From IMG/VR virus record IMGVR_UViG_3300048839_001305, positions 1-62,994 of that record: 62,994 bases of DNA; one strand, written 5' to 3'. This stretch comes from a virus. Taxonomy: Duplodnaviria; Caudoviricetes. The translations under genes and the position numbers were made by a program. How positions within the stretch are numbered: position 1 is the first letter of the stretch; each line of letters opens with the position of its first letter. Positions 3,407 to 43,356 of the stretch are shown here, in pieces. Under the pieces are notes generated by a model. The model worked only from the letters and a program-made list of their open reading frames with translations, made no database searches and was not told where the DNA came from.

Positions 3407-3589
3407 ATGAATCCGTATGTGGTGTGGTTCTTGATTCTGATCGCCGTCTTCCCCCTGACCGGCTTCCTGCTGGTGACGGTGGGCCAGCCGGTACGGCCGT
3501 TGGGCCATCTACTCAAGGCATCGGGTTTTTGGACGCTGGTGGTGTGGGTCGTGCTGGCGGCCGTCTTCGTCTGGGGGGCCGCGCAATGA
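3407..3589 (+). CDS. Small membrane protein
   Basis: GAGGT SD; two TM-like segments. Confidence 0.7.
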   Translation: MNPYVVWFLILIAVFPLTGFLLVTVGQPVRPLGHLLKASGFWTLVVWVVLAAVFVWGAAQ

Positions 3590-3807
3590 CGCAACAGACC
3601 GAGCGCGTCCGCAACGCCATCAACGGCCTTCTGAGGCGCAACCGCCGCACGGAGGGTGTCGAGGTCGAGGAAATGTACATGAGCCGGGAACTGTTCGTCG
3701 CCCGGCTGCGGCAGCCCAAGATCATCGAGGGCCGGTACATCGACGTAGACAAGACGGTGGACATGGCCGACCTGTTTGAGATGCATGACGCGGAGGCGGG
3801 GCGTTAG
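3586..3807 (+). CDS. Hypothetical protein
   Basis: ATGA overlap with the upstream gene. Confidence 0.65.
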   Translation: MTQQTERVRNAINGLLRRNRRTEGVEVEEMYMSRELFVARLRQPKIIEGRYIDVDKTVDMADLFEMHDAEAGR

Positions 3808-4151: not shown

Positions 4152-4543
4152 TGGACACGAGCAACGTCTGCGCCCGCTGCGCCGGGCCGGGGGCCAACAC
4201 CTACTCCGGCGACGAGTGGACGCACTATTACATGGGTGACTGCATCGAGCATCTACGCCGCCGCGCCGAGGCGGCCGAGCTTTCGGCAAGCCGCAACCGG
4301 GGAGCGCTGTGGGACGAGCACCAAAGACTCCAGGCGGCCGAGGCGAAGGTGGCCGAGTTGGAAGACAAGCTCGCCCGGCAAACGTTTGTGACGGACCGAC
4401 GGCCGCCGGAGGGCGAGCCGGTCGAGGTGCTGCTCGTCGCCCAATGGGAGCCGCGAATTGTGCCGGAGGCTCGCGGCCGTTGGCGCGACCGGCGATACGA
4501 GACGCTGAGCGGCGTACTGGGCTGGCGGCCCAAACAGGAGTAA
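4151..4543 (+). CDS. Zn-finger/coiled-coil protein with DUF551-like tail
   Basis: TGATG coupling; CARC..H..C; ends VLGWRPK. Confidence 0.6.
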   Translation: MDTSNVCARCAGPGANTYSGDEWTHYYMGDCIEHLRRRAEAAELSASRNRGALWDEHQRLQAAEAKVAELEDKLARQTFVTDRRPPEGEPVEVLLVAQWEPRIVPEARGRWRDRRYETLSGVLGWRPKQE

Positions 4544-27648: not shown

Positions 27649-28190
27649 CACGCACGCGGGACTGGCGACGACACCAACGGGAACGCATCCGACGCAGGCG
27701 GGCGCACTATTTCACGGTGCGCTGGGCGCATGAGTTGGGCGACCCTCGGCTCATCGACATTGCCTCCGAACATCCGCAGATATGTTCGTGTGACTTCTGT
27801 CAGAACCACTACCCGCGCGGTAAGTCGCCGGTGGAGTTGCGAGCACCGGGCGCGCCCGCACCACCGTCCGCCTCCGCTCTATCCGAGGAGGCAGCCTTTT
27901 TGGATTCGCCCGACGTGGATACGGACATTGATTGGGACGATGAGGAAGAAGACCTGCTTTATGACGAGATGATGCCGCGCGTCGTCTACGGCCGGAAGAC
28001 CATCAGCGCGTCGGTAGTATACGTGGAGCCGCGCTTCGCATTCCGCGACGAGGAAGAGGTAGACCTGCTGGACGACGAGAGGTTGCCACGGGTTGCCTAC
28101 GGCCGAGAAACATTGAACCTGCCTGTGGTGTACGTGGAGCCACGCTTCGCATTATTCCGCGACGAGGAAGAGGAGATAGACCCAACATGA
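27645..28190 (+). CDS. Arg-rich/Cys protein with duplicated acidic C-terminal repeat
   Basis: CSCDFCQN; two copies of DLL.DE..PRV.YGR.T....VVYVEPRFA. Confidence 0.65.
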   Translation: MTRTRDWRRHQRERIRRRRAHYFTVRWAHELGDPRLIDIASEHPQICSCDFCQNHYPRGKSPVELRAPGAPAPPSASALSEEAAFLDSPDVDTDIDWDDEEEDLLYDEMMPRVVYGRKTISASVVYVEPRFAFRDEEEVDLLDDERLPRVAYGRETLNLPVVYVEPRFALFRDEEEEIDPT

Positions 28191-28906
28191 GACAGCAATG
28201 GAATAGGGAGAAGGCCACGGAGGTCATCGTCTACCTGGTCGAACGGGTAAAGCCGCGGTCGGGCCATACCAAGTCGCGGGCCGTCCTGGAGATCGTCTAC
28301 CAGGCGGACAAGCTGCACCTAGAGCGGTACAGCCGCACGATTACCGGCGATAGCTACGCCGCTGCCCGGAGCGGGATGTACCCGGTTCACACCAACGATC
28401 TGCTCTACGCCGACGACAGCGACGCCTTCCAGTTCGGTGAGAAAGGCGAGCTTGCGGCACGACGGGCGGCCGATCTGATGGAACTGAGCAAGACAGATGT
28501 CGAGTGTCTGGATGAGACGCTGGATCACTACCGCCGCACGAACCACCGCCAGTGGCGGGCCGGAGTGATGGACTGGACGTGGCGCGATGCCACTTACCAC
28601 GGCGCGCTGTTCCGGGATGGGCACCGTCATGATGTCCATCGGGTCCCGCTGCTCGGCGTTATCCTGGGGCTGCCCAATGCCGAGAATATCATTCGGAATA
28701 TCTACGTTACGGGCACTGGGTCGTTGGATGATCCGCCAGAGCCGGCGACATTGGGCGAGGCGCTGAAGCAGATCGGCCGCTGGGGCGAGATCATAGGTGG
28801 CTGCATCGAGCGAGGGGAGCCGATACCGCCGGAAGCTCTTTTTGTATCTCTCCGTGAGCTGACGGCCGCGGCGGTTGGTGGCGCGGGCGGTGGGGGAGTT
28901 GGTTAG
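28187..28906 (+). CDS. Panacea/SocA (DUF4065)-like antitoxin-domain protein
   Basis: KATEVIVYL..IVYQADKLHLERYSRTITGDSYAA...G.YP; ELSKTDVECLDE. Confidence 0.75.
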   Translation: MRQQWNREKATEVIVYLVERVKPRSGHTKSRAVLEIVYQADKLHLERYSRTITGDSYAAARSGMYPVHTNDLLYADDSDAFQFGEKGELAARRAADLMELSKTDVECLDETLDHYRRTNHRQWRAGVMDWTWRDATYHGALFRDGHRHDVHRVPLLGVILGLPNAENIIRNIYVTGTGSLDDPPEPATLGEALKQIGRWGEIIGGCIERGEPIPPEALFVSLRELTAAAVGGAGGGGVG

Positions 28907-29183: not shown

Positions 29184-29476
29184 GCTACCTTACCGACTTA
29201 CCAGGCCCCGGTTATCCGGCCAGTTCAGCGACCTGGCCTTCTTCGGTCACATACGTGGCCCTCATTTGCCCGCGCTGCGGGGCCAACCACCGGCTGGAGC
29301 AGTGCCCGCAGGTCAAGGCCATCGAGTACCACGAGGACGGCCGCACCATCCGGCGTGTCGAGTTTTTCGACGGGACGGGCGCGCGGCCGTTGGAGATGAC
29401 AATTAGCGTCGGCCCTACGTTGTCAGAAGGAGCCGTGGTTGTGCACCAGGCGTGGCGTATTGGCCGGAATTGTTGA
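29180..29476 (+). CDS. Small Zn-knuckle protein
   Basis: CPRCG..H....CPQVKAIEY. Confidence 0.65.
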   Translation: MSYLTDLPGPGYPASSATWPSSVTYVALICPRCGANHRLEQCPQVKAIEYHEDGRTIRRVEFFDGTGARPLEMTISVGPTLSEGAVVVHQAWRIGRNC

Positions 29477-29498
29477 CCGAGGAAGAGGAACGGAAAGA

Positions 29499-30140
29499 GT
29501 GATTACCTATCCCAAGATCGAGACCCTGTACGACCGCGATCCGCGCACCTTCAAGGTGCTGCCGGACACGTTGCGCCACCCGGAGTTTGCGCTGATCGCC
29601 CGCTGGCGACTGACCGAGAAGATCGACGGCACGAACATCCGCGTAGGGCTGTCGCCCGACGGCCGCGTGACGTTCGGCGGGCGCACGGACAAGGCCGAGA
29701 TTCCACCCCACCTGCTGACCTACCTGACCGCGACCTTCCCGTCCGAGCGCGTGGCCGCCGCCTTCGACCCCGGCGCGGAGGTGGTGCTGTTCGGCGAGGG
29801 GTACGGCGAGAAGATACAAAGCGGCGGCGACTACCGAACGGGCGTGAGCTTCCGGCTGTTCGACGTGCGCGTGGGCGACTGGTGGCTGAACGCGGCCGAC
29901 GTTGACGACGTGGCCGCCAAGCTAGGCATCCAGACAGCCCCCTGTCTTCAGCGGGACATCATGTTCGTGCGCTATCCCGCGTCGGCCGAGGAACTGCGCG
30001 ATCTGTTGCCGGAGAGCATCGTCGCCGGGGAAGAGGGTCGCGGCCGGCCGGCCGAGGGCATCATCGCCCGCACCGACCCACTGCTGTTCATGCGCGACGG
30101 CCGCCGGGTGATGTGGAAGTTGAAGTTCAAGGACTTCTAG
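29499..30140 (+). CDS. RNA ligase (Rnl2-like nucleotidyltransferase domain)
   Basis: YPKIET, TEKIDGTN (motif I), FGEGYG, FRLFDV, EGII, WKLK. Confidence 0.88.
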   Translation: MITYPKIETLYDRDPRTFKVLPDTLRHPEFALIARWRLTEKIDGTNIRVGLSPDGRVTFGGRTDKAEIPPHLLTYLTATFPSERVAAAFDPGAEVVLFGEGYGEKIQSGGDYRTGVSFRLFDVRVGDWWLNAADVDDVAAKLGIQTAPCLQRDIMFVRYPASAEELRDLLPESIVAGEEGRGRPAEGIIARTDPLLFMRDGRRVMWKLKFKDF

Positions 30141-34147: not shown

Positions 34148-35734
34148 GTGGGAGGAGGATTGGAGCGGCTGGCCGACCCGACGGCGTGGCGCGACCGGGC
34201 GGCCTTCGAGCAGTTCCGCGTGGCCATGGCGCTGCGCGCGGCCGAGTTGCAGCGGACGACCGGGCGGCGCGACATGCCGGCCTTCGGCCGCTGGCTGAAG
34301 CAGGCCAGCCCGGAGTGGCCGTGGCACTACCGCCACCTGAAGGTTATTCGCAAGTACCTCAATCGGGTGGAGGCCGGGGAGATACAGCGCCTCATGATCT
34401 CCCTGCACCCGCGCTCCTTCAAGTCCCAGATGGTCACGGTGCGCTATCCGGCCTACGTGCTGGAGCGCGACCCGCTGACGCGCATCATCGTCGGCAGTTA
34501 CAACCAGGAGCTGGCCGAGTCCTTCTCCCTGGAGACGCGGCGCATCGTGGCCGAGCGCGGCGTGGCCCTCAATCCCAAGCGACAGAAGGTCAATGAGTGG
34601 CTGACGGCCGCCGGCGGCGGGCTGAAGGCGGTCGGCGTAGGTTCCGGCGTGACCGGGCGCGGCGGAAATCTCATTTTGATAGATGATCCGGTGCAGTCCT
34701 ATGAGCAGGCCCACAGTCGCGCCTACCGCGAACGGGTGTGGAACTGGTGGCGGACTGACCTCTTCTCGCGTCTGGAGCCGCACCCGCGTGACGGCCGCCC
34801 GCCGGCGGTCATCCTGATCATGACCCGCTGGGCGGAAGACGACCTCGCCGGGCGCATCCTGGCCGGTGAGGATGGCGAGCAGTGGCACGTGCTGCGCATT
34901 CCGGCCCTGGCCGAGACCCAGGCCGAGCGCGACGACTACAACGCCGGGATCGGACGGCCGCCGGGCGAGGCCGACCCGCTGGGCCGGGCACCGGGCGAGG
35001 CGATGAACCCGGAGCGGTTCGATGTCAAGCAGCTGGAGGCGATCCGGGTCGGCGGCGGGCTTATGTCGTTCATGGCCCTCTACCAGCAGCGGCCGAGCGC
35101 CCCGGAGGGGGACATGTTCCGCCGCGAGTGGTTCGAGGTGGTCAGCGCCGAGGCGTTCGCCGCGCTCACCGCGCCGGGCACGTCGCGGGCGGCCGTGCGT
35201 TACTGGGACAAGGCCGGGTCCAAGTCGGCCGGCAGCGCCTACACCGCTGGGGTGCTCATGGCCCGCGTCGGCGGGGACACCTACGTCGCGCACCTGGTCA
35301 TGGGCAAGTGGACGGCCCCGGAGCGCGAGCGCGTCATCCGGCAGACGGCCGCCGCCGACTTCGCCGCGTGGGGGTATGACGTGGAGACGGTGGTCGAACA
35401 GGAACCCGGCTCAGGCGGCAAGGAGTCGGCCGACAACACCGTGGACGCGCTGTCGGGCATGGGCTACCGCGTCGCCGCCGACCGGCCCACCGGCGACAAG
35501 ACGCTGCGCGCCGAACCGCTGGCCGCGGCCGCCTCGGTCGGCCGGGTGAAGCTGGTCGAGGGGCCGTGGAACCGGGACTACCTGGATATTCTGGCGGCCT
35601 TCCCCGGTGGCGCGGTCAAGGACGCCGTGGACGCCTCGTCGGGCGCGTTCATCCGGTTGACCCAGGTCGAGCGCGGCCGGCCGGCGGCGGGGCAGGCCAC
35701 GGTCACGAGCGCCAGTGACATCTTCGATGACTAG
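34148..35734 (+). CDS. terL: Terminase large subunit
   Basis: ISLHPRSFKS Walker A variant, TGRGG, LILIDDP Walker B, MTRW, YQQRP, RYWDKA, EQEPGSGGK, DAVDA. Confidence 0.95.
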   Translation: MGGGLERLADPTAWRDRAAFEQFRVAMALRAAELQRTTGRRDMPAFGRWLKQASPEWPWHYRHLKVIRKYLNRVEAGEIQRLMISLHPRSFKSQMVTVRYPAYVLERDPLTRIIVGSYNQELAESFSLETRRIVAERGVALNPKRQKVNEWLTAAGGGLKAVGVGSGVTGRGGNLILIDDPVQSYEQAHSRAYRERVWNWWRTDLFSRLEPHPRDGRPPAVILIMTRWAEDDLAGRILAGEDGEQWHVLRIPALAETQAERDDYNAGIGRPPGEADPLGRAPGEAMNPERFDVKQLEAIRVGGGLMSFMALYQQRPSAPEGDMFRREWFEVVSAEAFAALTAPGTSRAAVRYWDKAGSKSAGSAYTAGVLMARVGGDTYVAHLVMGKWTAPERERVIRQTAAADFAAWGYDVETVVEQEPGSGGKESADNTVDALSGMGYRVAADRPTGDKTLRAEPLAAAASVGRVKLVEGPWNRDYLDILAAFPGGAVKDAVDASSGAFIRLTQVERGRPAAGQATVTSASDIFDD

Positions 35735-35757: not shown

Positions 35758-35979
35758 ATGACACGCAAGAAGACGGCCGCCGAGCAACCGCCCGCCGAGC
35801 GACGGGCCGCGGCCCTCCGGGCGGCGCGGGAGGAGCTGGCCGCGCTGGCGGTGGAGCTGGAGGCGCGTTACGGCGCGACCGAGGGCCGCGGCGACCCGGC
35901 GGCCGAGGCCGAGGCGCTGGCCTTGCAGGGGCTGGTCGATGCCCTGCGGGCGCTGCGGGCCGGGCCGGGGTTGCTGTAG
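35758..35979 (+). CDS. Small hypothetical protein
   Basis: GGGGAG SD. Confidence 0.6.
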   Translation: MTRKKTAAEQPPAERRAAALRAAREELAALAVELEARYGATEGRGDPAAEAEALALQGLVDALRALRAGPGLL

Positions 35980-35981
35980 GG

Positions 35982-36203
35982 ATGCTGGACGATGACTTGT
36001 CCCGCCAGGCCGTGCCGGTCAGCCGGCCGGTCGACCGACCCACGGCCGCCGCGCCGCGCCCGGAAGGGCGGGCCGAACGGGCGGAGAAGTTCAAGCGGCG
36101 CGTGATGGGTCTGGCCGCCGGGCGGTGGGAGGTCATCCTCACCGTGGACGAGCATGGGGTCATTGACTGGTCGTTCCGGCCCTTCGGCAAGGTGGAGAGG
36201 TAA
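35982..36203 (+). CDS. Small hypothetical protein
   Basis: Operon position. Confidence 0.6.
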   Translation: MLDDDLSRQAVPVSRPVDRPTAAAPRPEGRAERAEKFKRRVMGLAAGRWEVILTVDEHGVIDWSFRPFGKVER

Positions 36204-36236
36204 CGGCCGCCGCGCGGCCGGGGGAAAGGGGAGACA

Positions 36237-36440
36237 GTGACGCAGATGCACACACAGAAGAGTGATCCGGCCCGCGCCGCGCTGGTGCGCGGGCTGGCGG
36301 TGCTGTACCGGGCGGCCGTGCTGGAAGTCCTCATGACCCGTTACCGCTGGTCGGCCGAGACGGCCGCCCGCGCCGCCGACGACATCGAGCGGGCGGTCAT
36401 CCGTGCCCGCGCCGCCCCGCCTCCCCAGACCCCGCCCTAG
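36237..36440 (+). CDS. Small hypothetical protein, similar to 33115-33366
   Basis: VLMTRYRWSAETAA. Confidence 0.6.
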   Translation: MTQMHTQKSDPARAALVRGLAVLYRAAVLEVLMTRYRWSAETAARAADDIERAVIRARAAPPPQTPP

Positions 36441-36470
36441 ACCCCGCGCCGGACGGCCGTCGCCCGCTGG

Positions 36471-36533
36471 CAACCAATCTCAACGAATTGAGTATATCTA
36501 CCTATTTACATCTGTTACGCAATCGCTTATACT
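36471..36533 (+). promoter_or_regulatory. TCTCAAC box plus sigma70 promoter
   Basis: CAACCAATCTCAACGAAT at 36471-36488; TTTACA(36505)-17-TATACT(36528). Confidence 0.8.
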
Positions 36534-36538
36534 ATCCT

Positions 36539-36562
36539 TGTGATTGGCGGCGGGGATAACCC
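36539..36562 (+). repeat. Inverted repeat, left arm
   Basis: TGTGATTGGCGGCGGGGATAACCC complementary to 37041-37063 (15 bp perfect core). Confidence 0.9.
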
Positions 36563-36599
36563 AAAGCAACCGGTTAAAAACCACATAGGAGTGATACCC

Positions 36600-37037
36600 A
36601 TGTCTAACACGCCATTCCAGACTGTTATCGGGATGCTGCGGCGGGCGGCGGCTTTTGACAAGCTCCCCCCACAGCAGCAGGCGGCCCTGCGGGCGCAGGT
36701 GAGCCGTCTGAGCAAGACGACCACTGACCCGCAGATCGCTGAGGTGCTGACCCAGATTCGGGCCACCATCGGTGAGGCCGAACGCAAGGACACCGGCGGG
36801 ATGACCGTCGAGGACTTGTTGGACGAGCACCGCGCCGGGTACGCCCACTACGATCCGCGCCGCCGGGCCGCTTTCAAGAGCCGCATGACCCGGCTGGCGA
36901 AAGCCGCCGAAGAAGACGGCGACGCGGACGCGGTGGCAACGTTGACGGCGCTGGCGGACGAAATCCGGGCCTCTGAGGAATCGGAGGCGCGGGAAGAAAT
37001 CCGCAAGCTGGCTGAGGCGCTGCGGAGCGCCAACTAA
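36600..37037 (+). CDS. All-helical protein with two internal repeats, monocistronic
   Basis: AGGAG SD; FDKLPPQQQAALRAQVSRL vs YAHYDPRRRAAFKSRMTRL. Confidence 0.8.
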   Translation: MSNTPFQTVIGMLRRAAAFDKLPPQQQAALRAQVSRLSKTTTDPQIAEVLTQIRATIGEAERKDTGGMTVEDLLDEHRAGYAHYDPRRRAAFKSRMTRLAKAAEEDGDADAVATLTALADEIRASEESEAREEIRKLAEALRSAN

Positions 37038-37040
37038 GTA

Positions 37041-37063
37041 GGGTATCACCGCCGCCAATCACA
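37041..37063 (+). repeat. Inverted repeat, right arm
   Basis: GGGTATCACCGCCGCCAATCACA. Confidence 0.9.
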
Positions 37064-37066
37064 GCC

Positions 37067-37091
37067 GGGGCCGCCGCAGGGCGGCCCCTTT
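37067..37091 (+). terminator. Intrinsic terminator
   Basis: GGGGCCGCC-GCAG-GGCGGCCCC then TTT (short U tract). Confidence 0.6.
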
Positions 37092-37297
37092 GGTGGGCCG
37101 GATAGATAGCTGGTGGGGCGGGCGCGGGCCGACGCGGGCGGCGCGGCAGACGAGTGACAGACGGCCGTCAGGTGGGGACGAACGGCCGCCGGCCGGATGC
37201 CGGATTGCGCCCCGGGCCGGACGCTGGCCGACGCGGCCGTGGCCGGTCGACGTGGGTGGGACTTTTTACCCGCCTCGCCGACGGCCGCCGGGCCTTC

Positions 37298-37348
37298 TCT
37301 CAACCAGTCTCAACGAATATTTGACGCCGATAGCGGAATTCCTATAAT
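37298..37348 (+). promoter_or_regulatory. Late-operon promoter with tandem TCTCAAC boxes
   Basis: TCTCAACCAG-TCTCAACGAA, then TTGACG(37321)-16-TATAAT(37343). Confidence 0.8.
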
Positions 37349-37423
37349 CCGGGGCAGACAAACGAATAACACGCGGCCGGGCCACCATACCCGGTGACGC
37401 GCCAGGAACCGGATAACGACCAC

Positions 37424-37464
37424 GCGGCGCACCCTTCACACGAGGGGTGCGCCGCTTTTCGTTT
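37424..37464 (+). terminator. Leader terminator/attenuator before the capsid gene
   Basis: 14-bp stem GCGGCGCACCCTTC/GAGGGGTGCGCCGC followed by TTTTCGTTT. Confidence 0.75.
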
Positions 37465-37478
37465 GGGGCAGGGGCAGT

Positions 37479-39800
37479 ATGAGCAAGACGAACAAGCAGA
37501 CCCGATTCAGGGAAGTGCAGGGCGAAGTCGCCCTGCTGGAGCAGGCCGGTGAGGCGGCCGCCGGGCCGCGCCGCATCCGTGGCGTGGGGGCGGTGGCCGA
37601 CGCGGTCAACCAGAATCGCCGTTTGTACCCGGCCGACGTGCTCCGCGAGGCAGTCCGCATGGCGCAAGCCAAGCTCACTCGCTCGCTCAGCCAGGGCAAC
37701 ATCCTCGGAGAAGCCGACCATCCGCCGTATGGGCCGCGCGTACTGGAAACGGTCGTCAAGTGGGAGGCCATCACCTTCAACGAGACGACCCGCGCCGTGG
37801 AGGTGGAGGGGACCATTATCCCCACCGACGCGGGCCGGAACGTGCTGACGCTCATGGAGGCCGGTGTCTTCCCCGGACTGTCGCTCAGAGGGCATGGCGA
37901 TAGCCAGTACGACATCGAGAAAGATATTGAGACCGTGACGCGCCTTGAGTTGATCGGGTTCGACCTGGTCTTTGAGCCGTCCTTCGAGGACGCCGGGGTC
38001 ACGGCGCTGGAACACAAACAACATCAGGAGAGGGGAGAGCCAACGATGGAACCGAAGAACGAAGATAAGGGCGTCGTGGACGCCAAGCTGGCGGCCGAGG
38101 TGCAAGAGCAGAGCCGCCGGCGCGAGGACGCCGAGAAGGCGCTGGCCGAAGCCAAGCGCCGCGAGGAAGAGCAGGCGGCCGAGGTCAAGCGGCTGGCCGA
38201 TGAGAAGGGCAAGCTGGAAGAGGCCGCCCGCGCCCGCGCCGTGGCCGACGCCATCGCCGTTGAGACGGCCGCGCTGCCCTACGACGCCGTTGTGGTCGCC
38301 CGCATCCGCGAGGCGGCCGAGGGCGCGGGTCTGGCCGACGCCGACGCCGTCCGCAAGTTCGTGGCCGGCGAGCGGGCGCGTGTGGACGCGCTGGCCGAGG
38401 CGCTCAAGCGCGAGGCCGAGAAGGCGGCCGAGGCCAAGCGGATCGAGGAAGAGAAGGCCGAGGCTGACCGCCGCGCCGAGGCGCGGGGCTTCAAGGTCAA
38501 CGGCCCGGTCATCGAGACGGCCGCCGGTGTGCCGGAGTACGCCACCTACAGCCACGAGCTGCGCGAGCAGTTGCGCGTGCGCGGTCTGGGCACCGAGTAC
38601 GACGCCGCCAAGGGCCAGAGCCGCGCCGAGACGCTGGCGCGCAAGATGCTGGAGGCGTTCGACAAGCAGTATCAGCGCCAGCTCATCGCCGAGCAGGCCG
38701 CCCTGCGCGAGGCTACGGCCACGTCCGACCTGAACCTGCCGACGCAGATCAGCCGGGCCATCATCGCCGAAGCCGTGCCGGAGATCGTCGCCGCCAACGT
38801 CTTTGACTTTGGTCTGATCGACGGCTCGCCGACGCGGGTGTGGTTCGAGGCGTATGCCGGTGAGTCCGGCTCCGCGCCGGCCGTCACCGATGAGGTCGTC
38901 GCCGCCGACCACGATGCGTGGGTCGCCCTGGCCAACAAGCACCTGCGCCGCAGCCCGGCCCCGGTCGTCACCAACTCGGCCGGCTCCACGACCTACACGG
39001 AGTGGACGGACTACATGATCGACCACGCCGACGGCCGTCTGTACGCCTTCTCGACCGGCACGATCACCGACGCCCAGTCCCTCAAGATCGACTACACCTA
39101 CGACAAGGTCGCCGTGGGCGAGGGTGGGGCCATCCAGCGCGGCAAGGGCACGCTGGCCTACCAGGACGTGTCGGTCGCCGCCAAGCGCCTGGCCGGCCTG
39201 GTCAACGACGAGGCCGTCGCCTTCGGCCAGTCGCAGCTCGGTTGGGACCCGGTGACGCGGGTCGTCTCGATGCTCATCCGTGAGCTGCGCGAGATGATCG
39301 ACAACGCCGTCTTCTCCAAGGCCATCGCCGCATCGGTGCAGTCGGGTAACTTCGGCGGCTTGTGGATGGCCGCCTCCGACACCGAGTCCGACCTGGTGAA
39401 GCAGATGGGCATCGCCAAGGTAGCCGTCGAGAACGACTACTACATGCCGCGCTACTTCGTCATGTCCAAGACCAACGCCGACCGTCTGTCCAACTGGACG
39501 GGTCTGACGCGCGAGGGCTTCCCCGATGCGCTGCTGGGCGCGGCCGGGTTCGCCAATATGCAGGTCAAGGGTCTGCCCATCTTCTCGACCACGGCCATGC
39601 CCGACACCCACATCCTGGTTGTCCACCCCGAACTGGTGCAGCACCGGGTGCTGTCCTCGCGGCCGATGTCGCTCAAGGGGCCGTTCCAGTACCGCGACAC
39701 CAACGGCAACCTGGTGGCGGCTCAGGAGTGGTACATCGAAGAGTACAACGGGCAGTGGGCATTCATCAACAACAAGGGCGGCTACGTCCGCGTCGCCTAG
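37479..39800 (+). CDS. Prohead protease-scaffold-major capsid polyprotein
   Basis: N-terminal NQNRRLYP, LGEADHP, GLSLRG.G, FDLVFEPS (T4 gp21-like protease); central coiled coil; C-terminal HK97-type capsid region. Confidence 0.88.
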   Translation: MSKTNKQTRFREVQGEVALLEQAGEAAAGPRRIRGVGAVADAVNQNRRLYPADVLREAVRMAQAKLTRSLSQGNILGEADHPPYGPRVLETVVKWEAITFNETTRAVEVEGTIIPTDAGRNVLTLMEAGVFPGLSLRGHGDSQYDIEKDIETVTRLELIGFDLVFEPSFEDAGVTALEHKQHQERGEPTMEPKNEDKGVVDAKLAAEVQEQSRRREDAEKALAEAKRREEEQAAEVKRLADEKGKLEEAARARAVADAIAVETAALPYDAVVVARIREAAEGAGLADADAVRKFVAGERARVDALAEALKREAEKAAEAKRIEEEKAEADRRAEARGFKVNGPVIETAAGVPEYATYSHELREQLRVRGLGTEYDAAKGQSRAETLARKMLEAFDKQYQRQLIAEQAALREATATSDLNLPTQISRAIIAEAVPEIVAANVFDFGLIDGSPTRVWFEAYAGESGSAPAVTDEVVAADHDAWVALANKHLRRSPAPVVTNSAGSTTYTEWTDYMIDHADGRLYAFSTGTITDAQSLKIDYTYDKVAVGEGGAIQRGKGTLAYQDVSVAAKRLAGLVNDEAVAFGQSQLGWDPVTRVVSMLIRELREMIDNAVFSKAIAASVQSGNFGGLWMAASDTESDLVKQMGIAKVAVENDYYMPRYFVMSKTNADRLSNWTGLTREGFPDALLGAAGFANMQVKGLPIFSTTAMPDTHILVVHPELVQHRVLSSRPMSLKGPFQYRDTNGNLVAAQEWYIEEYNGQWAFINNKGGYVRVA

Positions 39801-41907: not shown

Positions 41908-43356
41908 ATGGGACTTCTGGATCGCTTCCGCCGTAACCCGACCGCCGTGGCCGAGACGCCGCACAACACGTCGCGCGAGACGGTTCCCCCGGCGCGGCCG
42001 TCGGAACTGGTCGAGCGCTTCGGCGTTGAGCGCGGGCGGCACGAGACCGTGCGCAAGGCGCGGGAGATGTACGGCCGCGACCCGCGCATCCAGGGGATGA
42101 TCCGCACGCTGGCCCGTGACGCGGCCAAGAACGGATTCACCGTCACCGTCGCCGAGGGGCCGCGGGCCGAGGAGGCTCAGGCGGCCATCGACGCCCTGGT
42201 GCGCCGGCTGCACCTGAAGCGCAAGCTCGACGACTACGGCCGCATGGCGATGCGTGACGGCGATCTCTTCCTGGAGCCGGGCGTGTCGGCGGCGCGGGAG
42301 ATTGTGGAGTTGACGCGCAAGCCGACCTTGCAGATGGTGCGCCTCTCCGATGAGTTCGACCGCTTTCCCGACCCGGTGCAGGCGTTCGCCTGGACGGACG
42401 CGGCCTCGGCCGCCGCCGGTTCCGTCGGCCGCGACGCGGTCACGTTCCCGGAGTTCCTGATGATCCACGCCCGCTGGAACCACGACTCCGAGAGTCGCTA
42501 CGGCAGCCCGGAATTCGCCGCCGCCGTGGGGGCCTGGAAGCGGGCCAGTGAGGGCGAACTTGACGTGGCTATCGGCCGCAAGACGCGCTCCGGCGTGAGC
42601 TACGTCCACAACCTGGTGGGGGCGTCGGAAGCCGACATCGCCGCCTACAAGAACGCCAACCAGGCGGCGCTGGACAAGCCCTTCGCCGCCCGCGCCGACT
42701 ACTTCATCAACTTCGACGGGGGCATCTCCCAACTCCAGGGGGACAGCAACCTGGGCGAGATTCGGGACGTGGAACACCACATCCAGACGATGACGGCCGC
42801 CAGCCCCGTACCGCTGGAACTGGTGGCCTACGGGGCCAACCTCAACCGCGACGTGCTGCAAGAGAAGAAGCGCCAGTACGACGAGGGTATCGCCGCCGCG
42901 CAGGGCTGGATGGCCGACCAGATCATCGAGCCGCTTATCGAGCGGCAACTGTTGCTGGCGGGCATCCTGCCGGAGAACGTCGAATACGCCATCGGCTGGC
43001 CGGCCAAGCGCGTCCTGACCCCCGCCGACATGCAGGCCCTGGCCGTGGCCGTGGCCCAGATGCGCGCCGGCGGCTGGTCGGACGCGGCCGTCTGGGCGCT
43101 CGTCGAGCGCTATCTGCCGGAGGACGTGACATTGGAGACGCTGTTCAGCGGCCCGCCCGTCGCGCCGCCGGCCGCCCCGGACAATGAAGCCGACGAGGAG
43201 GACGCGGACGACGACGAGGGGGACGACGACGGCGTAGATGACGCCACGACCGAGGCGACCGTGCCGGCGCGGCTGTATGCCGAGACGATGGGCGCGGTCA
43301 ACCGGCTCGTCGGCCGTCTGGACATGGTGATGTGGGAGGACGACGATGGCGCTTAG
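41908..43356 (+). CDS. Portal protein
   Basis: 482 aa; REMYGRDPRI, RDGDLFLE, MIHARW...YGSP; directly upstream of MuF. Confidence 0.8.
   Translation: MGLLDRFRRNPTAVAETPHNTSRETVPPARPSELVERFGVERGRHETVRKAREMYGRDPRIQGMIRTLARDAAKNGFTVTVAEGPRAEEAQAAIDALVRRLHLKRKLDDYGRMAMRDGDLFLEPGVSAAREIVELTRKPTLQMVRLSDEFDRFPDPVQAFAWTDAASAAAGSVGRDAVTFPEFLMIHARWNHDSESRYGSPEFAAAVGAWKRASEGELDVAIGRKTRSGVSYVHNLVGASEADIAAYKNANQAALDKPFAARADYFINFDGGISQLQGDSNLGEIRDVEHHIQTMTAASPVPLELVAYGANLNRDVLQEKKRQYDEGIAAAQGWMADQIIEPLIERQLLLAGILPENVEYAIGWPAKRVLTPADMQALAVAVAQMRAGGWSDAAVWALVERYLPEDVTLETLFSGPPVAPPAAPDNEADEEDADDDEGDDDGVDDATTEATVPARLYAETMGAVNRLVGRLDMVMWEDDDGA

Follow-up and report, generated by a model that had tools for sequence, protein, structure and literature searches.

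Few bacterial mRNAs, namely hbs, icaR and some toxin messages, have been shown to base-pair their own two ends. As described in the passages cited here, a 14-bp interaction linking the 5' UTR with the 3' UTR of Bacillus subtilis hbs (HU), located just upstream of the terminator, restricts RNase cleavage, and the effect of the pairing on nuclease access was proven with compensatory mutants (Braun, Durand, Condon 2017, PMC5737220). The Staphylococcus aureus icaR message is described as carrying a 3' UTR motif that pairs with its own ribosome-binding site (RBS), blocks initiation and makes an RNase III substrate (Ruiz de los Mozos et al. 2013, PMC3868564). For the type I toxin mRNAs, the corresponding passages report a tac/fbi closure and a metastable 5' structure in hok (PMC9841398) and, in Helicobacter pylori aapA1, an mRNA closed 5' to 3' with its RBS sequestered (PMC5416894).

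We examined a gene in a 63-kb high-GC IMG/VR contig from an uncultured phage (62,994 bases; hereafter the window), whose transcript is predicted to pair its two ends. The sequence-only reading of this DNA had not recognised the arrangement; as far as the passages cited above go, 5'/3'-UTR pairing is published for all four of these messages, and the comparison that had been drawn with the type I toxin mRNAs hok and AapA1 fits as a description of how the RNA may work. We found no phage mRNA with paired ends in a full-text literature search, and no end-to-end mRNA pairing in phage morons in the literature searched. Morons are independent promoter-gene-terminator units in the late operons of lambdoid phages (HK97, HK022).

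The transcription unit and its product

The stand-alone unit sits between the terminase gene (34148-35734) and the prohead-protease gene (37479-39800), belongs to the + strand gene row, and contains its own promoter, a gene for a 145-aa orphan protein and a GC-rich hairpin. Its features are the following:

36471-36488, + strand: 18-nt motif upstream of promoter P1, with two direct CAACNAAT repeats 10 bp apart
36505-36533, + strand: promoter P1, TTTACA (36505-36510), 17-nt spacer and TATACT (36528-36533), 10/12 consensus matches
36539-36562, + strand: 5' arm of the long-range helix, beginning with the predicted +1 (inverted repeat, fold, covariation)
36570-36576, + strand: CCGGUUA, candidate partner in a metastable 5' hairpin, pairing with 36541-36548 of the 5' arm when the 5' UTR is folded alone
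36588-36599, + strand: ribosome-binding region, SD GGAG (36588-36591) and spacer GUGAUACCC (36591-36599), complementary to 37041-37049
36600-37037, + strand: gene of the 145-aa orphan protein, ATG at 36600, N-terminus conserved from this ATG
37041-37063, + strand: 3' arm, its outer part (37049/50-37063) pairing with the 5' end (inverted repeat, fold, covariation)
37067-37091, + strand: G+C-rich hairpin, presumed terminator, 9 bp with loop GCAG, then TTT

The near-consensus promoter sequence that had been proposed (TTTACA-17-TATACT) is present as described. P1 and a site at 37321 were the two best + strand promoter sites near the structural genes, and three more sites scoring 9-10/12 were found elsewhere in the 63 kb. 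Both P1 hexamers are identical in the homologous loci L002 and L004 despite a diverged spacer, and the first hexamer of L005 is TTGCCA. The 18-nt motif is common to P1 and the next promoter (second copy at 37301-37318), with 2 matches in the 62,994 bases (2 matches were reached in 0 of 100 shuffles), and related motifs were present at both promoters in L002/L003, L004 and L005. The transcript is predicted to start at about 36540; G36540 is the seventh base past the -10 hexamer and is invariant in the four loci. Of the sequencing runs considered, three wastewater runs labelled RNA-Seq are probably DNA, and four runs matched the region in short contig pieces that showed neither ends nor joints.

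Directly 3' of the 3' arm we recovered the hairpin that had been called a terminator (GGGGCCGCC-GCAG-GGCGGCCCC at 37067-37088); its U tract is poor, with only TTT after it, and because this T run is short the hairpin is missing from the terminator-scan list. The hairpin-bearing downstream stretches reached -24 to -28 kcal/mol, with different sequences in L004 and L005.

The unit was present in every syntenic relative found, and the gene family occurs in a different gene context in the distant homolog L007. The G+C content was 0.59-0.63 at the promoter and in the unit's 5' part, 0.67-0.69 in the remaining gene and 0.71-0.79 in the flanks. The likeness to morons lies in an own promoter and hairpin terminator (both predicted signals) inside a conserved gene module, between conserved structural genes; the G+C content below that of the flanks and the family's other context may add to it. 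We lean towards regarding it as an autonomous ('moron-like') phage transcription unit, a judgement made jointly with the reading of its mRNA as self-closing.

The 145-aa gene had a dN/dS of 0.16-0.33 in six pairwise comparisons. The AlphaFold2 model of its product consists of six helices (pLDDT 86), and the two three-helix halves were homologous according to hhalign (probability 97.9%, E 3.6e-13, 55 columns), in agreement with the two helical repeats claimed earlier; BLASTP between the halves gave no match. The protein is hydrophilic and acidic (GRAVY -0.61, pI 5.8), and a search of 1.84 billion proteins yielded 40 representatives of its family at E <= 0.001. In Pfam nothing was above threshold; DUF3106, found in 5 of 42 members, was the sole match beneath it, and neither PHROGs nor NCBIfam matched the 145-aa protein. 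PADLOC assigned 0 families to the window protein and gave six unrelated single-member matches among its 42 relatives. Foldseek against PDB and BFVD returned nothing at E <= 0.001, the ESM Atlas nothing usable, and a PDB profile search a partial best match to a nucleotidyltransferase (E 0.0017). In tblastn against 50,697 GenBank phages, the window protein and P0014 were both without a match, as was the unit's region in blastn. No Rfam family was found in 36300-37600 (top match E 0.99), and no integrase among the 37 long ORFs scanned. A lysogenic or defence gene had been among the proposals made for it; the protein is hydrophilic, of 145 aa and without a PADLOC, PHROG or above-threshold Pfam family, the consensus scan showed no antisense promoter inside the transcript and the ORF scan no integrase, and the proposal is thus not supported.

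Two other candidates were rejected. A longer ORF that would start in frame at the upstream GTG 36540 was ruled out because the 5' UTR of L002 has an in-frame TAA. For a Q-like antiterminator role, with the gene just upstream of a promoter-leader-terminator arrangement, no evidence was found, and L007 is without such a leader.

Predicted pairing of the 5' end with the 3' end

The end complementarity that had been noticed was recovered in both its parts, a perfect 15-nt core and a helix of about 22 bp. The inverted repeat (36539-36561 with 37041-37063) comprises 23 nt with 91% complementarity, its core TGTGATTGGCGGCGG occurs in the window in these two places only, and the helix is predicted to have 20-22 bp and -37 to -43 kcal/mol. 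The 3' arm occupies the 3' UTR gap from the stop codon to the terminator hairpin and ends 3 nt before the hairpin. As in hbs, a 5' UTR and a 3' UTR are complementary just upstream of the terminator, and the gene is small (highly expressed in hbs) with a strong SD. According to the passages on hbs, its 14 bp are within the 5' UTR and follow two hairpins, whereas the 20-22 bp of the phage helix start from the predicted first base; moreover, part of the phage 3' arm can also mask the RBS (predicted), and the phage gene is an orphan known from sequence.

Folding, which the sequence-only reading had proposed as a check, gave a minimum-energy structure of 36539-37095 that joins both ends (z = -7.7; 0 of 100 shuffles equally stable). 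In full-length folds of all four distinct loci the outer 12-13 bp had a pairing probability of about 1.0, in a class of RNA (560 nt, G+C-rich) for which energy models are unreliable. Duplexfold on the 78-nt and 63-nt flanks discriminated weakly in this G+C-rich sequence, and arm-only and alignment-based tests were used instead.

Complementarity of this kind could be a functionless product of chance or hitch-hiking in G+C-rich DNA. Elsewhere in the 63-kb window there are 12 inverted pairs of 14 nt, lying 100-3000 nt apart and all G+C-rich, and the invariant core of the helix, GCGGCGG/CCGCCGC, is itself G+C-rich and of low complexity. Because these 12 pairs exist, the length of the repeat alone is not decisive; its position and conservation are. 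None of the 12 extends, and a perfect inverted repeat of 15 nt was reached in 0 of 2000 dinucleotide shuffles of 36471-37091 (largest 14). Six double changes in two lineages and a constant geometry also argue against chance, which we find scarcely credible.

The double changes were found in alignment A5 (window, L002, L004 and L005; 23 pairs, 90 cells), in which 93.3% of the cells were paired and 6 of the 23 pairs were changed on both sides, in the separate lineages L004 and L005. The helix score was matched by 0 of 500 shuffles, a type of control that overstates significance when sequences are related, and the helix-bearing set consists of four distinct sequences from close relatives (71-92% protein identity). 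Slid controls on the same alignment gave 34-58% paired cells and 0-2 double changes. The helix was kept in 4/4 distinct close homolog loci with both ends readable, always with the first paired base at the predicted +1 and the end of the 3' arm at stop+26, followed by the hairpin. The search for covarying arms around homologs that had been suggested was thus positive, and the objection that homologs might lack flanking complementarity applies to L007 (41% identity) and not to the four close loci. No long-range match was found in L007, where 97 of 300 shuffles were as good; the fold of its 5' UTR gives a local hairpin from about +1, which would fit a need for a paired 5' end. The sequence of L006 (53% identity) stops before its 3' UTR. 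These homologous loci are those among the matches listed in a metagenome scan, in which the homologs P0002, P0004 and P0006-P0010 (51-74% identity) were not included as DNA; an IMG/VR search with alignment A4 gave no further loci, and the gene family was found in 1 of 401 genomes of the phylum of L007, namely L007's own.

Two sites recognised by a single protein would likewise be expected to change in concert, and the repeat might work at the DNA level. Its arms could be the terminal inverted repeats of a small mobile cassette, mark the crossover points of an invertible segment or serve a single protein as a pair of operators. They open with TGTGA and close with TCACA, resembling many transposon ends, and the lower G+C content around the unit than in its flanks would agree with a role as DNA. 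However, there is no target-site duplication beside the arms, L005 differs in precisely their outermost bases, an 'element' so bounded would exclude the promoter and terminator, all five assemblies share one orientation, and the 37 ORFs scanned yielded neither a recombinase nor a transposase. Among the IMG/VR matches listed, two inverted copies of the 15-mer were found only on the L002 contig, and the other matches (at least 121 on about 120 loci) were single, unrelated and coding. A MITE or IS-like element was rejected on these grounds (no duplication, no other paired copies among the matches listed, variable outermost bases). Finally, mismatched cells on the + strand were 3-5 G-U against 1 A-C, a tolerance for G-U that does not extend to A-C, and a third RNA partner is compatible with the 5' arm as well; the mismatch pattern, with few cells behind it, points to RNA rather than DNA, and a role as DNA seems to us very doubtful.

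The evidence from these alignments supports the view that the 5'-3' pairing is a selected feature. Most likely the helix is selected for closing the message, and would control its stability and translation.

The ribosome-binding site and a candidate local 5' hairpin

The 3' arm segment nearest the stop codon, GGGTATCAC (37041-37049), may have either 36555-36562 or the SD-AUG spacer as its partner. Its complementarity to GTGATACCC (36591-36599), which spans the last G of the SD GGAG through the base preceding the ATG, is perfect. The masking duplex covers this spacer and 1-3 SD bases, less than the whole SD. Its predicted energies were -16.7 (window), -20.0 (L002) and -16.0 kcal/mol (L005), equalled by 0, 0 and 1 of 1000 shuffles, respectively; masking is absent in L004, where 333 of 1000 shuffles were as good. 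Two pairs covary across the three lineages with the complementarity: the pair at stop+10 is C-G in the window, U-A in L002 and A-U in L005, and that at stop+11 is A-U in the window and L002 and U-A in L005. The predicted masking probability was 0.38 in the window, 1.0 in L002 and 0 in L004 and L005. Judged by the energies, L002 would have the masked state as its ground state; in the window this state would be isoenergetic, in L005 it would be minor, and L004 would lack it. In the window and L002 it would let the 5' arm and the SD-AUG spacer abut on the 3' arm, in about 24 contiguous pairs. Of the RBS masking claimed earlier, the perfect complementarity thus stands, with covarying pairs in 3/4 lineages, but the state is predicted to be populated in 2/4 loci.

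The icaR message has a 3' UTR segment complementary to its own RBS region, and the phage message may resemble it, with a complementarity of this kind that is significant in 3/4 lineages. In the passages on icaR, the segment is an anti-SD, UCCCCUG, within a long 3' UTR, and the 5' terminus is not clamped, whereas the phage pairing involves the spacer and 1-3 SD bases, lies 4-13 bases after the stop codon and varies among lineages.

The 5' arm may have a further partner in CCGGUUA, with which it would form a local hairpin of 7 bp that can hold it in the nascent RNA (predicted). All 27 cells of this hairpin were paired (27/27), with no double change and two one-sided changes that turn G-U or U-G into A-U or C-G. 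The 5'-arm substitutions of L005 (G>A and U>C), which are matched in the 3' arm, are still compatible with the unchanged local partner CGGUUA.

This predicted layout of 5'-3' closure, lineage-variable RBS masking and candidate nascent local 5' hairpin parallels that of hok and AapA1, in which, as described, an extreme 5' element and a 3' element close the stable full-length mRNA, the RBS is sequestered when closed, and the 5' element of the nascent RNA pairs with the region just downstream. The message might therefore be that of a silenced toxin or defence gene in the type I toxin-antitoxin manner, kept inert by the 5'-3' lock and activated by 3' processing, with a protein that is harmful or excludes phages; the self-contained unit and its different gene context in L007 would suit such a role. 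However, the passages cited for hok and aapA1 describe toxic peptides of <50 aa, an antisense RNA antitoxin and activation by 3' trimming. Type I toxins are hydrophobic and under about 60 aa, and the phage product, a soluble protein of 145 aa with six helices, is unlike a short membrane peptide. A consensus scan, which reaches canonical promoters and leaves non-canonical ones outside its scope, found no minus-strand promoter-like site within 36540-37091, and the sole such site nearby (36518 to 36491) is directed away from the transcript. In the phage, moreover, a stable hairpin lies 3' of the lock and would block 3' trimming, L004 lacks the masking and L005 has a weak one, and the window protein is without a PADLOC match. 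We consider a silenced toxin or defence message quite improbable.

A proposed course of events for the message

On balance we favour the explanation that the mRNA of this autonomous phage unit closes on itself, in a 5'/3'-UTR panhandle that would hide its 5' end; in the best reading of the ribosome-site pairing, a lineage-variable RBS-masking state would accompany the panhandle. In the nascent RNA, the 5' end would first be held in the weak local hairpin with CCGGUUA, and because the ribosome site would be free at this point, translation is proposed to start during transcription. Once transcribed, the 3' arm would form the stronger long-range helix and displace the local hairpin. This helix would leave no free 5' bases, and the adjoining terminator hairpin would cap the 3' end; the message is therefore proposed to be shielded from nucleases that enter from an end (those of RNase J, RNase E or pyrophosphohydrolase type would be shut out) and long-lived. 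Finally, the 9-10 stop-proximal bases of the 3' arm could switch to the SD-AUG spacer, giving a closed state with the RBS masked. Since this segment lies 4-13 bases past the stop codon, a terminating ribosome should open it, and the balance of the two states would thus depend on ongoing translation.

In an alternative that is compatible with a real helix, and differs only in its consequence, RNase III would cleave the helix. This could be a negative control (icaR-like decay, with less protein), or the helix could be a processing stalk of the kind found around 16S and 23S rRNA, by which the message would be cut from read-through transcripts and receive defined ends. A nearly perfect duplex of 20-22 bp is of the length class of RNase III substrates, the masked state of the window and L002 would offer about 24 contiguous pairs, and read-through transcripts are plausible since the gene lies within a + strand gene row. 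There is also the precedent of icaR, where 5'/3' pairing is described as feeding RNase III (PMC3868564). Nevertheless, a cleavage site needs no exact +1 start, yet this start is kept in 4/4 loci, the strong promoter and SD favour high output over self-destruction, and the local 5' hairpin of L007 fits end protection better. We regard an RNase III target as unlikely, though the most serious of the alternatives.

The panhandle reading can be carried further, to a bistable translation-sensing switch on a closed-loop phage mRNA, which we put forward as a speculation with a rather low probability. The outer 13-15 bp would clamp the 5' end permanently, and the 9-10 bases behind the stop codon would toggle between the inner clamp (RBS open) and the SD-AUG spacer (RBS shut), with the stop codon brought beside the start codon. 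A terminating ribosome would have to melt the toggle segment, and the start site would therefore re-open. If this were true, messages under translation would remain active, and those standing idle would be locked in a dormant form that is proof against nucleases.

With its own promoter and terminator, the phage gene offers a clean covariation-backed example of end pairing, in which the helix starts at the predicted first base. The competing RBS pairing varies in strength among close relatives and provides a natural allelic series, suited to tests of the interplay of 5'-end sequestration, termination near the lock and initiation, and the element would make a small module with which to adjust the lifetime and output of mRNAs in high-GC hosts.

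In a bolder variant of the switch speculation, host RNase III would cut the stalk and a phage RNA ligase of the Rnl2 family would join the ends, giving a circular mRNA. A gene of this ligase family is present in the window (29439-30140).

Complementary ends of the orphan gene's transcript

We analysed the 145-aa orphan gene as a unit on the + strand, which comprises:

36505-36533, + strand: promoter, TTTACA-17-TATACT
36539-36561, + strand: 5' arm
36600-37037, + strand: the gene
37041-37063, + strand: 3' arm, just after the stop codon
37067-37088, + strand: 9-bp G+C hairpin, starting 3 nt after the 3' arm and followed only by TTT

The promoter proposed in the sequence-only reading was confirmed and matches the consensus at 10 of 12 positions. 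The complementary ends were likewise recovered: the arms form a 23-nt inverted repeat (91% complementarity) with a perfect 15-nt core, of which the window holds just these two copies. When the 621-nt region was shuffled 2000 times (dinucleotide shuffling), no perfect inverted repeat of 15 nt arose, but the length of the repeat alone is unconvincing, because the rest of the phage has 12 more inverted pairs of 14 nt, all G+C-rich and none extending further (0/12). The folding of the full predicted transcript bore the idea out, with paired ends (z = -7.7). The hairpin expected after the 3' arm is present, though our terminator scan omits it since just TTT stands behind it.

We compared the window with homologous loci, namely L002 and L003 (92% protein identity to the window, and identical to each other at the locus), L004 (73%), L005 (71%), L006 (53%; contig ends within the gene) and L007 (41%; contig of an Ardenticatenaceae MAG). 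Synteny with the window is common to L002/L003, L004 and L005. The window, L002, L004 and L005 were aligned from the -10 hexamer past the hairpin, omitting L003 (duplicate), L006 (no 3' end) and L007 (without arms). Covarying arms were found in this alignment: counting each pair in each sequence as one cell, the 23-pair helix had 93.3% of 90 cells paired, and both sides had changed in 6 pairs, in two separate lineages (G-C to A-U, U-A to C-G and U-A to G-U in L005; A-U to C-G, U-A to G-C and C-G to G-C in L004). Shuffling never attained any of the five measures (0/500), a significance that is overstated for kin, the sequences being few (four) and related. When the partner was slid by 1–3 columns, pairing was only 34–58%, with 0–2 double changes. 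Partition-function folds of the full transcripts gave the outer helix a probability of about 1.0 in all four loci, and the arm-only duplexes (20–22 pairs) ranged from -36.7 to -43.0 kcal/mol. These duplexes begin at the predicted +1, a G present in all four loci as the 7th base past the -10 hexamer, and the 3' arm ends 26 bases after the stop codon in 4/4 loci, followed by a hairpin of locus-specific sequence. The complementarity, conservation, covariation and geometry of the helix can be read directly from the aligned sequences, and the RNA helix is probably a selected feature.

Several points favour a + strand RNA helix over a DNA element. The helix extends from the predicted first base to just before the terminator, with promoter and terminator outside; the cells without Watson-Crick pairs are mainly G-U (3 robust, up to 5) versus one A-C; the unit has the same orientation in all five assemblies, with no recombinase seen among the 37 long window ORFs scanned; and a third partner for the 5' arm exists within the 5' UTR. 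This partner is CCGGUUA (36570-36576), with which the 5' arm pairs when the 5' UTR is folded alone. All 27 cells of the 7-bp local helix are intact. L005 has two substitutions in the 5' arm; opposite the unchanged local partner they replace G-U by A-U and U-G by C-G, and the 3' arm of L005 has changed in step with them. The local hairpin is compatible with these data rather than proven, since it has no double changes. A mobile element was also considered and rejected (no target duplication; outermost arm bases vary). Among the matches listed by an IMG/VR scan with the 15-mer (121 matches, about 120 loci), L002's own contig was the sole one with paired copies.

Predicted masking of the ribosome site and the proposed mechanism

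The first bases of the 3' arm, GGGTATCAC (37041-37049), are exactly complementary to GTGATACCC (36591-36599), which begins with the final base of the SD and ends immediately before the ATG. The resulting masking duplex is strongest in L002 (-20.0 kcal/mol; 0/1000 shuffles as good), followed by the window (-16.7 kcal/mol; 0/1000) and L005 (-16.0 kcal/mol; 1/1000), and was not found in L004 (-8.5 kcal/mol; 333/1000). This helix also covaries, as seen from the pairs formed by the 10th base after the stop codon (C-G in the window, U-A in L002, A-U in L005) and the 11th (A-U, A-U and U-A). It is no by-product of the first helix, since the 10th base of L005 is bulged in the continuous helix and paired in the masking one. 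The predicted balance differs among the four loci: in the window, masked and open states are separated by no more than 0.2 kcal/mol (P = 0.38 masked); in L002 the masked state is the predicted ground state (P = 1.0); in L005 it lies 4.7 kcal/mol above the predicted ground; and L004 lacks it. The alternative pairing described in the sequence-only reading is therefore real (it covaries in the window, L002 and L005) yet lineage-variable. Judged from these loci, the conserved core is the end-to-end clamp, and masking varies between lineages. A local hairpin at 36583-36603 (ACAU..GG / CC..AUGU) can also join two SD bases to the spacer and the AUG to bases upstream of it; the hairpin has a pairing probability of about 0.3, and the terminator scan lists a minus-strand terminator-like site there. 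In the fold model, this hairpin would be a third way of occluding the start site.

Published work describes three comparable mRNAs. In B. subtilis hbs, a 14-bp pairing of the 5' UTR with sequence just upstream of the terminator restricts RNase Y cleavage, which was established with compensatory mutants (PMC5737220); the icaR mRNA of S. aureus has a motif in its 3' UTR that binds the SD region, so that initiation is blocked and RNase III fed (PMC3868564); and in hok, the tac/fbi stem joins the 5' and 3' UTRs, and the 5' element takes up a metastable structure in nascent RNA (PMC9841398). By analogy, the unit would work like the hbs, icaR and hok mRNAs. It is a case of 5'/3'-UTR pairing, a known kind, here in a phage orphan gene and with an unusually complete three-partner layout; no phage example was found in the full-text literature searched. 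The earlier interpretation is partly supported. The unit is not a type I toxin system: it encodes a large, soluble protein, and a consensus scan gave no antisense promoter.

We slightly favour, as a whole, a closed, end-protected mRNA, in which a local 5' hairpin would form during RNA synthesis, the long-range helix would displace it when the 3' arm emerges, and whether the ribosome site is open or masked would then be a translation-sensitive choice. The parts that we infer are the transcript ends, in vivo folding, a shielding of the message against end-dependent nucleases, and whatever a terminating ribosome may do. RNase III cleavage of a duplex of this length is a serious rival and could coexist with end protection. 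That the helix begins at the predicted +1 is our main reason for preferring end protection to an RNase III site alone or an anti-SD.

The orphan protein and its surroundings

The ORF from the ATG at 36600 encodes 145 aa, with an N-terminus conserved among relatives; gene callers elsewhere place the start at Met12 (as in P0001), and an upstream in-frame start was excluded by a stop codon in L002. The gene is under purifying selection (dN/dS 0.16–0.33 in six pairwise comparisons of four loci). Searched exhaustively with a profile, a set of 1.84 billion representative proteins yielded 40 at E <= 0.001, mostly of 122–172 aa (273 for the weakest match, E 2.8e-4). The protein model has six helices (pLDDT 86), and the two helical repeats noticed earlier were substantiated by halves that are homologous to each other (hhalign 97.9%, E 3.6e-13). 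No name was obtained from family, fold or defence libraries.

The window record is linear (estimated completeness 80%, IMG/VR) and represents a tailed phage of high GC, whose long ORFs almost all lie on the + strand. Its recognisable genes include ParB, a PAPS-reductase-like protein, two DNA methyltransferases, Mu-F-like and tape-measure genes, and:

28187-28906: protein with SocA/Panacea antitoxin-like domain (E 4e-7), adjoining the RNA ligase
29439-30140: RNA ligase, Pfam PF09414 (E 1e-15)
34148-35734: large terminase
37479-39800: 773-aa protein with N-terminal prohead-protease domain (Peptidase_S77)
41908-43356: portal

The RNA ligase is of interest to a hypothetical mRNA end joining. No integrase was found among the 37 long ORFs scanned. 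The order terminase, small ORFs, 773-aa protease gene, portal, Mu-F-like is unusual. Three small ORFs (73, 73 and 67 aa) at 35758-36440, between terminase and unit, had no Pfam or PHROG match, and in L005 at least the first and second are conserved. The 773-aa protein has a charged, coiled-coil-like middle and an Ig-like segment (residues 464–545) matching tail-tube/Ig models; its C-terminal half, without a match among PDB sequences, Pfam or NCBIfam models, is probably scaffold plus capsid, named by none of the libraries. Phage morons are promoter-gene-terminator units, and ours resembles one in this layout and in a G+C of 0.59–0.63 at its promoter and 5' part versus 0.71–0.79 in the flanks.

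Further elements flank the unit:

36471-36488 and 37301-37318: 18-nt motif, upstream of both promoters
37092-37300: G+C-rich spacer from the hairpin to the second promoter
37115-37140 and 37214-37239: 26-nt direct repeat in the spacer
37321-37478: region starting with a second strong promoter, TTGACG-16-TATAAT (11/12), then a conserved leader of about 105 nt
about 37372-37402: hairpin of the leader
37424-37464: terminator-like hairpin plus TTTTCGTTT in the leader

The leader ends 20 nt before the prohead-protease ATG, is conserved in L003, L004 and L005 with double changes in 4 out of 33 predicted pairs, and belongs to no Rfam family; its layout recalls conditional termination before head genes in the style of lambda pR'-tR' or HK022 put. 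The motif, CAACCARTCTCAACGAAT, consists of two CAACNAAT repeats 10 bp apart, with no third copy in 63 kb; it abuts the -35 at the second promoter, whereas 16 nt separate the two at the first. Its copies within each relative are more alike than between phages (AACCATTTGG twice in L005), which suggests binding by one phage-specific DNA-binding factor. No other part of the locus varies as much as the spacer, which is longer, with other repeats, in L002/L003 and has different repeats again in L005.

The distant homolog L007 has a different setting, with three tandem units that each begin with a near-identical consensus promoter (TTGACA..GTAACTGTATGGTAYAAT; 2813-2884, 3579-3650 and 4246-4279). Unit 1 carries the homolog of the 145-aa gene, unit 2 encodes a SWIM zinc-finger protein, and a 21-nt tandem repeat is present in 3 copies at 4328-4396. 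No 5'-3' complementarity was found in L007 (97/300 shuffles as good; no inverted repeat). Its 5' UTR has a 7+7-bp local hairpin beginning one base into the folded stretch (z only -1.6), a single case, in line with the notion that what counts is the pairing of the 5' terminus.
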